Below the pieces are notes generated by a model, which was not told the origin of the DNA, did no database searches, and saw only the letters and a list, made by a program, of their open reading frames with translations. Shown in pieces: positions 20,002 through 57,065 of a stretch of 64,000 bases of DNA; position 1 is the stretch's first letter; each line of letters begins with the position of its first letter. The position numbers and the translations under genes are program-made. Location: NCBI RefSeq assembly GCF_000026545.1, contig NC_011601.1, one strand, 5' to 3'. Source of the stretch: Escherichia coli O127:H6 str. E2348/69 (GTDB taxonomy: Bacteria > Pseudomonadota > Gammaproteobacteria > Enterobacterales > Enterobacteriaceae).

Positions 20002-20018
20002 ATGTTACCCGTATCATT
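20002..20018 (+). promoter_or_regulatory. GntR operator (distal) in the gntT promoter
   Basis: ATGTTACCCGTATCATT matches the GntR operator motif ATGTTACCCGTAACAT. Confidence 0.65.
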
Positions 20019-20140
20019 CCCATGGGCACCAAACACACTCATAACATCTGACTACACTAACTCGTTTTAGGGGTCATCAGCCGTGGTGCCGTAACATCTC
20101 TGTTCCCAGTTGGGACAACCAGGATTTTCCGTCAGAAACC

Positions 20141-20157
20141 TGACGTTACCCATAACA
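20141..20157 (+). promoter_or_regulatory. GntR operator (proximal) in the gntT promoter
   Basis: TGACGTTACCCATAACA, second GntR-type half-palindrome just upstream of the gntT start. Confidence 0.6.
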
Positions 20158-20177
20158 AATTAAAGGCCAGGTAAATC

Positions 20178-21494
20178 ATGCCATTAGTCATTGTTGCTAT
20201 CGGTGTAATCTTGTTATTACTCCTGATGATCCGCTTCAAAATGAACGGTTTCATCGCTCTCGTCCTCGTGGCGCTTGCTGTTGGATTAATGCAAGGAATG
20301 CCGCTGGATAAAGTTATTGGCTCCATCAAAGCCGGTGTCGGCGGAACGCTCGGTAGCCTTGCCCTGATCATGGGTTTTGGCGCAATGCTGGGCAAAATGC
20401 TGGCAGACTGCGGTGGCGCACAACGTATCGCCACCACGCTGATTGCTAAATTTGGTAAAAAACACATCCAGTGGGCGGTGGTACTGACCGGTTTTACCGT
20501 TGGTTTTGCCCTGTTCTATGAAGTGGGTTTCGTGCTGATGCTGCCGCTGGTGTTTACCATCGCGGCTTCCGCGAATATTCCACTGCTGTATGTTGGTGTA
20601 CCAATGGCGGCTGCACTGTCTGTGACCCACGGCTTCCTGCCACCGCATCCGGGTCCGACTGCGATTGCCACCATTTTCAATGCCGATATGGGTAAAACCC
20701 TGCTGTACGGTACTATTCTGGCAATCCCGACCGTTATTCTCGCCGGTCCGGTTTACGCTCGCGTGCTGAAAGGTATCGATAAGCCAATCCCGGAAGGTCT
20801 GTACAGCGCGAAAACCTTCAGCGAAGAAGAGATGCCAAGCTTTGGCGTCAGCGTCTGGACTTCTCTGGTGCCGGTTGTGCTGATGGCGATGCGTGCAATT
20901 GCCGAAATGATCCTGCCGAAAGGTCACGCTTTCCTGCCGGTGGCGGAGTTCCTCGGTGACCCGGTAATGGCAACGCTGATTGCCGTGCTGATTGCTATGT
21001 TCACCTTTGGTCTGAACCGTGGTCGTTCAATGGATCAGATTAACGACACGCTGGTTTCTTCCATCAAAATCATCGCGATGATGCTGTTGATCATCGGTGG
21101 TGGCGGTGCGTTCAAGCAGGTGCTGGTAGACAGCGGCGTGGACAAATACATTGCTTCCATGATGCACGAAACCAACATTTCTCCGCTGCTGATGGCCTGG
21201 TCGATTGCCGCCGTACTGCGTATCGCGCTGGGTTCCGCAACCGTTGCGGCAATCACTGCGGGGGGTATCGCGGCACCACTAATTGCAACGACGGGTGTTA
21301 GCCCGGAACTGATGGTTATTGCGGTTGGTTCCGGTAGTGTGATTTTCTCTCACGTGAACGATCCGGGCTTCTGGCTGTTCAAAGAGTACTTTAACCTGAC
21401 TATCGGCGAGACCATCAAGTCCTGGTCGATGCTGGAAACCATTATCTCGGTGTGCGGTCTGGTAGGCTGTCTGCTGCTGAATATGGTGATTTGA
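20178..21494 (+). CDS. gntT: High-affinity gluconate:H+ symporter GntT
   Basis: 438 aa, MPLVIVAIGVILLLLLMIRFK; GntP family; paralog of gntU in this window. Confidence 0.93.
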   Translation: MPLVIVAIGVILLLLLMIRFKMNGFIALVLVALAVGLMQGMPLDKVIGSIKAGVGGTLGSLALIMGFGAMLGKMLADCGGAQRIATTLIAKFGKKHIQWAVVLTGFTVGFALFYEVGFVLMLPLVFTIAASANIPLLYVGVPMAAALSVTHGFLPPHPGPTAIATIFNADMGKTLLYGTILAIPTVILAGPVYARVLKGIDKPIPEGLYSAKTFSEEEMPSFGVSVWTSLVPVVLMAMRAIAEMILPKGHAFLPVAEFLGDPVMATLIAVLIAMFTFGLNRGRSMDQINDTLVSSIKIIAMMLLIIGGGGAFKQVLVDSGVDKYIASMMHETNISPLLMAWSIAAVLRIALGSATVAAITAGGIAAPLIATTGVSPELMVIAVGSGSVIFSHVNDPGFWLFKEYFNLTIGETIKSWSMLETIISVCGLVGCLLLNMVI

Positions 21495-51852: not shown

Positions 51853-51890
51853 TTTTTCGAAAAGAGCCCGGTAGCGTCAGAACTACCGGG
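51853..51890 (-). terminator. Terminator hairpin downstream of gntU
   Basis: CCCGGTAG-CGTCAGAA-CTACCGGG; on the minus strand it is followed by CTCTTTTCGAAAAA. Confidence 0.6.
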
Positions 51891-51899
51891 TAAACAAAC

Positions 51900-53240
51900 T
51901 TAACTCAACAGCTGGAACGCAATCATCCCAACGATGGCACCGACAGTGCCGAGGATGGTTTCCATCATGGTCCAGGTTTTAAGCGTTTCGGCTTCGGTCG
52001 CGCCGGTAAATTTACCGAACAACCAGAAACCCGCGTCGTTAACGTGGCTGACAACAATCGAACCACCGGCGATACAAATCGACAGCGCCGCCATTTGCGC
52101 ACCGGAGTAGTTCAGTTGTTCAATGACCGGCATTACCAATCCCACCGCCGTTAAACAGGCAACGGTGGCAGAACCCTGAATGATGCGCACTGCAGCTGCC
52201 AGCACGAAGCAGGTGATGGCAATCGGCAGGCCCATGCCGGTTAACGCTTCGCCCAGTGCCGGACCGACACCAGAGTCAACCAGCACCTGTTTGAACACGC
52301 CGCCCGCACCAATCACCAGCAGAATGATCCCCGCCGGTTGCAGCGCGTGACCGCAAATCTCCATCACTTTGTCTTTTGGCATACCCTGACGCATTGCCAG
52401 ACCGTAAATCGCCACCAGGCAAGCAACCAGAATCGCGGTAAACGGATGACCAATAAACTCGAACCATTCGTAAGCAGTAGAGCCTTCTGGCACAAAACGC
52501 GCGGCAATGGTTTTCAGCCCCACCAGCACCAGTGGCAACAGGATCAGCGACAGGCTGAATCCGAAGGACGGCATTTTGCCTTCGCCGAGATGCGGTTCGC
52601 TGATGTCGTCAGGAATATGCAACTCCACGTAGCGGCTGATGAAATTACCCCACAGCGGCCCGGCAATAATCATTCCCGGAATTGCCGCGCACAGGCCAAT
52701 CAGGATCATCCAGCCAAAATCGGCATTCATCTGCGATGCCAGCAGCATTGGCGCTGGCCCAGGCACCAGGAACGCAGCCGCTGCCGCCACGCCTGCAAAT
52801 AATGGGATTACCAGCTTCACCAGGTTCGTGCCGGTGTGGCGCGCCATTGAGAAAGCAACGCTAATCAGCAGAACAATCGCCACTTCAAAGAACAGCGGTA
52901 GCGCACAAACCAGCCCCGCAAGGCCGATAGCATAATGCACGCGGCTGTGACCGAAGGATTTGAGCATTTTGACGGCAATCTGATCGACCGCGCCGGTTTC
53001 ATGTAAGATCTTACCAAACATGGCTCCCAGAGCGACAACCACCGCCAGGAAGCCGAGGGTGCCTCCCATCCCTTTTTCCATCGTCGCTGCGATTTTATCG
53101 AGCGGCATACCGGAAAAAAGGCCAGCCCCCATGGACACCACCATTAAAGCCAGGAAAGCGTGCATACGCGCCTTCATGACTAAAAACAGCAGCAGTAAAA
53201 CAGACCCTACTGCTGTTAAAACAAGCGTTAATGTAGTCAC
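51900..53240 (-). CDS. gntU: Low-affinity gluconate transporter GntU
   Basis: 446 aa GntP-family permease, paralogous to gntT in this window. Confidence 0.93.
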   Translation of the reverse strand: MTTLTLVLTAVGSVLLLLFLVMKARMHAFLALMVVSMGAGLFSGMPLDKIAATMEKGMGGTLGFLAVVVALGAMFGKILHETGAVDQIAVKMLKSFGHSRVHYAIGLAGLVCALPLFFEVAIVLLISVAFSMARHTGTNLVKLVIPLFAGVAAAAAFLVPGPAPMLLASQMNADFGWMILIGLCAAIPGMIIAGPLWGNFISRYVELHIPDDISEPHLGEGKMPSFGFSLSLILLPLVLVGLKTIAARFVPEGSTAYEWFEFIGHPFTAILVACLVAIYGLAMRQGMPKDKVMEICGHALQPAGIILLVIGAGGVFKQVLVDSGVGPALGEALTGMGLPIAITCFVLAAAVRIIQGSATVACLTAVGLVMPVIEQLNYSGAQMAALSICIAGGSIVVSHVNDAGFWLFGKFTGATEAETLKTWTMMETILGTVGAIVGMIAFQLLS

Positions 53241-53243
53241 TAC

Positions 53244-53771
53244 TTATTTGCCTTTTTTAATAACCTCAATGGTGCTTGCCACAACACCTTCCAGCGGTTG
53301 ATCAATATCCACCACCAGTACATCGGTTTCGTCCGCACCCGGCTCCTGCAGCGTTTCAAACTGCGTCACCAGCATTTGGGTTTTAAAGAAATGGCCTTTG
53401 CGCGCTTTCAGGCGGCTTTCAATCACATCAAAATCGCCTTTCAGGTAGATGAAAGAGAGATTAGGATTACCTTCACGCAGCAAGTCGCGATAGTGTTTTT
53501 TCAGTGCAGAACAGACGATCAGCGATACTTTATTGGTGCGCTGCATAGCAAACGCGGCGTCGTTCAGCGCCTGCAACCACGGTTTGCGATCGTCGTCATT
53601 CAGCGGTTCGCCAGACGCCATTTTTTCGATATTGCAGCGCGGATGGAGGAAATCGCCATCAAGAAACGCGGCATGAAGTTGATGCGCCACTTCACTGGCG
53701 ACCGCAGATTTGCCGCTGCCCGATACGCCCATCAAGACGTAAATGTGGTGATCATGGTTAGTCGTGCTCAA
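53244..53771 (-). CDS. gntK: Thermoresistant gluconokinase
   Basis: 175 aa from a TTG start (STTNHDHHIYVLMGVSGSGKSAVA, P-loop). Track ORF extends 7 codons upstream. Confidence 0.88.
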   Translation of the reverse strand: MSTTNHDHHIYVLMGVSGSGKSAVASEVAHQLHAAFLDGDFLHPRCNIEKMASGEPLNDDDRKPWLQALNDAAFAMQRTNKVSLIVCSALKKHYRDLLREGNPNLSFIYLKGDFDVIESRLKARKGHFFKTQMLVTQFETLQEPGADETDVLVVDIDQPLEGVVASTIEVIKKGK

Positions 53772-53800
53772 AGTGGTGCCCCCACAATACAAGAATTAAA

Positions 53801-53831
53801 AATGTTACGGGTAACTGTTATCGGTAACATT
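53801..53831 (-). promoter_or_regulatory. GntR operator(s) in the gntKU promoter
   Basis: AATGTTACGGGTAACTGTTATCGGTAACATT; two overlapping GntR-type ATGTTAC...GTAACAT palindromes. Confidence 0.65.
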
Positions 53832-53909
53832 GTCCAGCCGGACAATATCAGAAGCAATATCCATCCGTGCCTTAAGTGTATAAGTGTGAGCTACTTCAAA
53901 TTTGTAGGC

Positions 53910-54905
53910 TTAAATAGATCCGCCCGGTGACAAGGTGAAACCTAAATCTAACATTTTCGGTGTCACAGATTCGCCACGAATACGCGCCAGCAGGCGCTCA
54001 GCGCCAATGCTGCCCATCCGCTCACGCGGCGTCAGCACACTCGCTAGCCGTGGCTCCATCACCTGACCAATGTCATGACCGTGGAAACCGGCAATCGCCA
54101 TATCGTCAGGAACTTTCAACCCCAGACGCTGACATTCAAACGCCGCGCCGACCGCCAGGTCATCATTAGTACAGAACACGCCATCCAGCTGCGGATATTC
54201 CCGCCGCGCCTGGCGAATCAGTTCAATACCGGAAGAGTAAGAAGAAGATTGCTCAACCATCACGCTATACGGCACCAGGCCTGCATCCAGCATCGCCTGT
54301 TCGTATCCCTTCTGTTTGATGATAGTACGTTCGTCGAGGCGTGCGCCGAGATAGGCAATGTGGCGATGCCCGCGAGCAATAATGGCGGTGGTCATCTGGC
54401 GTGCCGCTTCAAAGTTATCAAAACCGACGGCGATATCGAGGCACGGCGACTTACTGTCCATCAACTCCACCACCGGAATCCCCGCCACTTCAATCATCTT
54501 TAAGGTACGCGGCGTGTGGGTACGTTCGGTGAGGATCAGGCCGTCGATATTCCATGAGAGCATTGATTCGAGGCGTTCTTGCTCCATTTCCGGTTTATAA
54601 CCGTAGTGCGCCAGCATGGTTTGATAACCGTGCGCGTCGGTGACGCTTTCGATTCCGCGTAATACTTCCGCGAAAACCTGGTTGGTGAGAGAAGGTAACA
54701 GGACGCCAATCGCCCGGCTGGTGGCGTTAGAGAGTATATCGGGCGCGCGATTGGGAATATAACCCAGTTCATCAAGAGCGGCGGCAATCTTGCCGCGTAG
54801 AGCGACGGAAACCTGCTCCGGGTTGCGTAAAAAACGGCTGACCGTCATTTTGGTCACGCCTACACGGTCAGCCACATCCTGAAGTACGGGTCTTTTCTTT
54901 TTCAT
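53910..54905 (-). CDS. gntR: LacI-family gluconate repressor GntR
   Basis: 331 aa, MKKKRPVLQDVADRVGVTKMTVSRFL (LacI-type HTH). Confidence 0.93.
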   Translation of the reverse strand: MKKKRPVLQDVADRVGVTKMTVSRFLRNPEQVSVALRGKIAAALDELGYIPNRAPDILSNATSRAIGVLLPSLTNQVFAEVLRGIESVTDAHGYQTMLAHYGYKPEMEQERLESMLSWNIDGLILTERTHTPRTLKMIEVAGIPVVELMDSKSPCLDIAVGFDNFEAARQMTTAIIARGHRHIAYLGARLDERTIIKQKGYEQAMLDAGLVPYSVMVEQSSSYSSGIELIRQARREYPQLDGVFCTNDDLAVGAAFECQRLGLKVPDDMAIAGFHGHDIGQVMEPRLASVLTPRERMGSIGAERLLARIRGESVTPKMLDLGFTLSPGGSI

Positions 54906-56971: not shown

Positions 56972-57065
56972 AAAAAAAAGCCAGCACCCGGCTGGCTAAG
57001 TAATACTGGAAGCAATGTGAGCAATGTCGTGCTTTCAGGTTCTCCGCGAGGGTCTTCCTGATCGC
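56972..57065 (-). ncRNA. ryhB: RyhB iron-responsive small RNA
   Basis: Minus strand reads GCGATCAGGAAGACCCTCGCGGAGAACCTGAAAGCACGACATTGCTCACATTGCTTCCAGTATTACTTAGCCAGCCGGGTGCTGGCTTTTTTTTT, which I recognise as E. coli RyhB including its terminator hairpin; located between yhhX and yhhY as in K-12. Confidence 0.92.

Follow-up and report, generated by a model that had tools for sequence, protein, structure and literature searches.

The interval at positions 53760-53835 of the window (the whole 64-kb stretch, 64,000 nucleotides, analysed here) lies on the minus strand within the gntR-gntK intergenic region. With high confidence, we interpret this region as the gntKU promoter, operator and leader, in which gntK translation would start at TTG 53771 and transcription would come from a CRP-assisted promoter repressed by GntR. 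The genes concerned are as follows:

54905..53910, minus strand: gntR (RefSeq annotation; 776 bits against NCBIfam NF011563, cut-off 433)
53771..53244, minus strand: gntK, thermoresistant gluconokinase, 175 aa plus stop (RefSeq CDS coordinates)
53240..51900, minus strand: gntU, the operon's second gene (RefSeq; GTG start 3 nt past the gntK stop)

The products of gntR, gntK and gntU each scored above the curated cut-off of the corresponding NCBIfam equivalog model. GntK reached 374.6 bits against NF008583 (cut-off 265; aligned over 1-174 of 177) and 239.9 bits against TIGR01313 (cut-off 113.75), and carried near its N-terminus the P-loop GVSGSGKS, of the GxxGxGKS type; by its sequence it classes as a GntK/IdnK-type gluconokinase under both models (NF008583, TIGR01313). 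Residues 1-175 of PDB 1KNQ aligned with GntK at E = 3.5e-114 with a single difference, Cys46 here versus Arg46. Codon 46 lies at 53634-53636 (minus strand), and among 81 Enterobacteriaceae sequences the residue was Ser in 54, Cys in 19, Arg in four, Ala in three and Lys in one; the Arg46 of K-12, found in four of the 81, is therefore a minority state.

The gntRKU control region is well studied and was treated in Tong et al. 1996, Izu et al. 1997 and Tsunedomi et al. 2003. The segment 53200-54000 was 100% identical in E. coli Nissle 1917, and likewise in many other E. coli chromosomes, and was matched at 95% identity or more by 5424 of 5426 complete E. coli genomes. Compared with E. coli K-12, 178 of 180 aligned bases around the start were identical at the same locus, with complete identity from the -35-like box through the start codon, and the gene order gntR-gntK-gntU and the annotated TTG start were the same. 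The two SNPs both fell between the gntR stop and the -35-like box, and GntK differed by Arg46 versus Cys46. This is thus the very gntKU promoter-operator of K-12, here carried by an E. coli strain of B2 type; since the regulatory region differs at just two of 180 bases, both upstream of the -35-like box, the K-12 experiments transfer to it. PMC4052901 and PMC12195362 cite the gntRKU primary work.

The minus strand across the region reads CTGGACAATGTTACCGATAACAGTTACCCGTAACATTTTTAATTCTTGTATTGTGGGGGCACCACTTTGAGCACGACTAAC, and the elements that bear on the start of gntK are:

53769..53771, minus strand: gntK TTG initiation codon (RefSeq-annotated start; TTG/ATG column; three-base periodicity)
53779..53783, minus strand: GGGGG run, Shine-Dalgarno element with a 7-nt spacer to the TTG (pairing energy with the 16S rRNA 3' end, -8.4 kcal/mol)
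53790..53792, minus strand: upstream in-frame TTG, rival start (182 aa), judged not used (direct reading)
53796..53798, minus strand: in-frame TAA closing the gntK frame upstream (direct reading and ORF list)

Downstream of TTG 53771-53769 the codons AGC ACG ACT AAC encode (M)STTN, the N-terminus of the 175-aa gluconokinase, and RefSeq places the gntK CDS start at this TTG in both Nissle 1917 and K-12 MG1655. For comparison, the orthologous locus was fetched from 80 other Enterobacteriaceae species of more than 20 genera, giving 81 sequences with that of the window. In the 80 other species the start column held TTG in 77 and ATG in three (Buttiauxella, Yokenella and Trabulsiella). From TTG 53771 onward the first two codon positions had almost no entropy and the third had much, while the 30 nt upstream varied strongly (1.3-2.0 bits) outside the G-run at -11 to -8; coding-type three-base periodicity thus began exactly at TTG 53771 and not earlier. 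In public records, at least 1000 contigs carried the 175-aa form, versus three with the 182-aa form. PDB 1KNQ and the NCBIfam model also start at the residue encoded by this TTG, their boundaries possibly just following the annotation.

The ribosome-binding site points to the same codon. The duplex energy of GGGGG (-8.4 kcal/mol) was in the top 2.5% of local positions; a comparable element was present in all 81 sequences (mean -8.1 kcal/mol, range -5.6 to -11.8), with an invariant G at -10. The distance from operator to start varied from 20 to 87 nt among the 81 sequences and was spread over all three mod-3 classes (40, 23 and 18 sequences), so the leader is non-coding. The presumed leader folded less stably than shuffled controls (z = +1.43), so that the ribosome-binding site should be accessible in an unstructured leader. 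An RNA structure masking the ribosome-binding site was rejected on the same folding result. Taken together, the sequence comparisons identify TTG 53771-53769 as the gntK start, giving the 175-aa gluconokinase. This confirms the accepted GntK start; the TTG was already established in annotation and literature. A literature text search on the gntK start codon and N-terminus returned nothing relevant.

The initial annotation had likewise matched the 175-aa protein to initiation at TTG 53769-53771, and this is borne out by RefSeq and by the 80-species column. Its companion statement, that the nearest in-frame ATG would add seven residues, was in error: the codon at that place (53792-53790) is TTG. 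No in-frame ATG occurs upstream of the gntK TTG before TAA 53798-53796, because this stop closes the frame, and the nearest upstream ATG (53830-53828) is out of frame inside the operator. A protein N-terminus at an upstream ATG, which had been offered as the refuting observation, was accordingly misframed; the alternative to be weighed is a 182-aa product that begins at TTG 53792.

Such a product, beginning MYCGGTTL, would use the first start-type codon of the open frame, and it has been deposited for E. coli UTI89 (ABE09374.1) and in two other records. Several lines of evidence make initiation at TTG 53792-53790 extremely improbable: i) the codon lacks Shine-Dalgarno pairing, with an anti-Shine-Dalgarno energy of +0.6 kcal/mol versus -8.4 kcal/mol for TTG 53771; ii) an in-frame TTG at -7 codons was kept in just 15 of the 81 sequences, all from Escherichia or close Citrobacter relatives, and leader lengths differed by non-multiples of three; iii) the 21 nt upstream of TTG 53771 had no codon periodicity; iv) the three species with ATG have it in the downstream column, that of 53771. 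The two TTGs are in frame with no stop between them, and the -7 TTG is retained in Escherichia and some Citrobacter, two points in favour of a minor 182-aa isoform beside the major 175-aa protein in Escherichia and close Citrobacter relatives. The evidence just listed counts equally against joint use of both codons; moreover, initiation at a weak codon that lacks a ribosome-binding site should be very inefficient, and common descent by itself would account for the -7 TTG in close relatives, so that we consider two isoforms highly improbable. TTG 53792 is, on these sequence comparisons, an accidental in-frame codon in an untranslated leader, and the deposited 182-aa GntK (ABE09374.1 of UTI89 and the two further records) is evidently an over-extended call. 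An internal ATG 13 codons into gntK was also rejected as start, having no Shine-Dalgarno sequence (+1.2 kcal/mol) and deleting residues conserved in all species.

GntK lengths in public records were inconsistent (163, 175, 176, 177 and 182 aa), and the 163-aa entry of E. albertii bears the name 'shikimate kinase', which shows start-codon and naming noise for a small P-loop kinase. In Klebsiella, Raoultella and relatives (12 of the loci) an extra leader segment separates the GntR operators from the gntK ribosome-binding site, with an operator-to-start distance of 74-87 nt versus 30 nt in E. coli.

To assess retention of the TTG, the 81 gntK sequences were placed in a neighbour-joining tree and analysed by Fitch parsimony, which gave two transversion events for the initial base of the codon, versus a median of six at 47 fourfold-degenerate sites; since 21% of these sites had two events or fewer, the TTG is not retained significantly more slowly than neutral expectation. 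Special purifying selection on the codon thus gained no support from parsimony, and a selected translational throttle on gluconokinase, as far as the sequences bear on it, is possible but not supported. Other weak non-ATG starts in E. coli include the TTG of cya and the GTG of lacI. Like starts of the cya/lacI type, the gntK TTG is served by a normal Shine-Dalgarno sequence; it differs from them in that the weak codon is without sign of specific selection.

The start of gntU is also non-ATG (GTG 53238-53240, minus strand, 3 nt after the gntK TAA), so that gntK and gntU alike begin with weak codons. The sequence of the gntK-gntU junction differs between genera. A terminator-like hairpin, CAGCAGTAGGGTCTGTTTTACTGCTG then CTGTTTTT, lies at 53190-53215 (minus strand) just past the gntK stop and the gntU GTG, within the first ~50 nt of gntU; it fits the partial terminator or attenuator described between gntK and gntU. 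A second terminator-like hairpin follows the gntU stop at 51867-51890. The only Rfam match in the window at the gathering threshold was the RyhB small RNA gene (56972-57036, minus strand; 83.1 bits).

Upstream of the gntK start lie two overlapping operator sites:

53815..53830, minus strand: GntR operator, upstream site, ATGTTAC-CG-ATAACAG (repeat and motif analysis, conservation)
53802..53817, minus strand: GntR operator, downstream site, CAGTTAC-CC-GTAACAT (repeat and motif analysis, conservation)

The two 16-bp sites share 3 bp with their centres 13 bp apart and together form a 29-bp element (53802-53830), each built from half-sites TGTTAC and GTAACA around a central CG-type pair (CG or CC). 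The element also reads as a direct repeat with 13-nt spacing and as an inverted repeat whose 15-nt arms (53801-53815 and 53817-53831) are 87% complementary and separated by 1 nt. Across the 64-kb window the motif ATGTTACCNGTAACAT, allowing up to three mismatches, gave seven strand-matches versus 1.3 expected, a count reached in none of 100 shuffles, and all matches were upstream of gntK or gntT. Conservation was nearly complete: GTTACCCGTAAC in the downstream site was invariant, with a C-to-T change in a single sequence as the sole exception among the 81, and the double-operator pattern ATGTTACCGATAAC[A/T]GTTACC[C/T]GTAAC was present in 80 of them. From operator end 53802 to TTG 53771 there are 30 nt, which include the Shine-Dalgarno run. 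Motif enrichment and conservation thus give good support to 53802-53830 as the tandem operator of E. coli GntR, essentially invariant across Enterobacteriaceae.

The double palindrome that the initial annotation had placed immediately upstream of the start (53801-53831) was therefore recovered as an inverted repeat, a 13-nt direct repeat and an enriched motif. Calling it 'GntR-type' was correct in that it is the operator of E. coli GntR; the wording misleads, the repressor being of the LacI family. The gntR product had weaker matches to other LacI-family regulators (CytR, RbsR, PurR, GalR and CcpA), and no model of the winged-helix GntR (FadR/HutC) family was among the profile matches listed for it. 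E. coli GntR is a LacI-family gluconate repressor that shares only its name, by coincidence, with the winged-helix GntR family. The description of operator and start as tightly packed corresponds to the 30-nt gap at this locus; in other genera the gap ranges over 20-87 nt.

The tandem operator is already established in the literature. LacI-family operators follow an even-palindrome rule (PMC4052901), and the overlapping operators described there are even 16-bp palindromes with central CG/CC and a centre distance of 13 bp, as here. Citing Tsunedomi et al. 2003, that paper states that the GntR operators of gntKU, which overlap at a 13-bp spacing, were shown to be functional. The same paper names gntKU as the experimentally supported example of 13-bp overlapping LacI-family operators and reports the arrangement as conserved in more than half of the GntR-regulated operons of gamma-proteobacteria. 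The locus shows no difference from this class, of which gntKU is the type example.

How GntR occupies the element admits a second reading, in which the 29 bp would form one long palindrome for a single GntR oligomer, or mutually exclusive sites, and would not bind two dimers at once. The inverted repeat, with its 15-nt arms and 1 nt between them, is compatible with this, as are the perfect outer half-sites (ATGTTAC) beside degenerate and overlapping inner ones; PMC4052901 moreover states that dimers 13 bp apart 'cannot interact', leaves the binding geometry of GntR unexplained and poses the binding mode as a question. On the other hand, each 16-bp unit obeys the even-palindrome rule of the LacI family and matches the single gntT sites, and the gntKU element is treated in the literature as two sites (PMC4052901). 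We therefore regard the single-palindrome or mutually exclusive arrangement as doubtful, and the element is described here as two sites.

The same 16-bp GntR motif precedes a gluconate transporter gene of the window that belongs to the same regulon, gntT (regulatory region 20002-20158):

20178-21494, plus strand: gntT, high-affinity gluconate transporter gene
20002-20017 and 20143-20158: GntR-motif sites ATGTTACCCGTATCAT and ACGTTACCCATAACAA upstream of gntT

The second site ends ~20 nt before the gntT ATG, and the pair presumably represents the known two-operator gntT arrangement. Whereas the gntT sites are 141 bp apart ahead of an ATG start, those of gntK overlap, 13 bp apart, ahead of a TTG.

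Upstream of and overlapping the operators, the following promoter elements are proposed:

53829..53834, minus strand: putative -10-like hexamer GACAAT (in the conserved block 53834-53817; A at position 2, T at position 6)
53852..53857, minus strand: putative -35-like hexamer TTGCTT (conserved block TATTGCTT at 53859-53852; 17 nt from GACAAT)
53885..53900, minus strand: putative CRP-like site TTTGA-AGTAGC-TCACA, in a class I position (one mismatch to TGTGA-N6-TCACA)

The conserved blocks of the intergenic region were the CRP-like site, TATTGCTT at 53859-53852, and GACAAT with both operators at 53834-53803. Both half-sites of the CRP-like element were conserved across genera; matches at one mismatch are expected ~1.7 times per window by chance, so the motif count alone is not above chance. 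A generic sigma-70 consensus scan found no promoter on the minus strand, and it missed TTGCTT because just three of the six bases match the -35 consensus. An alternative promoter with -35 TGGACA (53836-53831) and -10 TACCCG was rejected: TACCCG does not end in T, and TTGCTT-17-GACAAT agrees with the conserved blocks. The supplements of PMC3415461 had no gntK entry for a transcription start. We infer the -35, -10, CRP and transcription start assignments from conservation and geometry.

The CRP-like site and the -35-like hexamer flank a further conserved block, GCACG(G/A)ATGG (53861-53870, minus strand), which could be an alpha-CTD contact region or be bound by a different regulator; in Kluyvera species an 11-bp stretch is duplicated beside it.

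In the proposed scheme, transcription would begin near 53821-53822 from a weak sigma-70 promoter in which 17 nt separate TTGCTT from GACAAT, and CRP bound ~71 bp upstream (about -70.5 or -71.5, class I) would assist it. The operators would span ~-9 to +20 relative to this start. From there GntR, the product of the adjacent upstream gene, would keep RNA polymerase from binding or from leaving the promoter. Gluconate, as the inducer, would release GntR and allow gntKU to be transcribed, and the GGGGG Shine-Dalgarno run in the unstructured leader would then serve TTG 53771 to yield the 175-aa gluconokinase.

Beyond annotation hygiene these results matter little: the 175-aa start is confirmed, the 182-aa records are recognised as over-extended, and an ATG that does not exist is corrected. 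A TTG throttle operating across Enterobacteriaceae and, separately, an as yet unexplained LacI-family mode of operator binding, in which two dimers sit on different DNA faces or exclude one another, both strike us as improbable. The scientific point that the locus leaves is the one posed in PMC4052901, namely how a LacI-family repressor occupies sites 13 bp apart.
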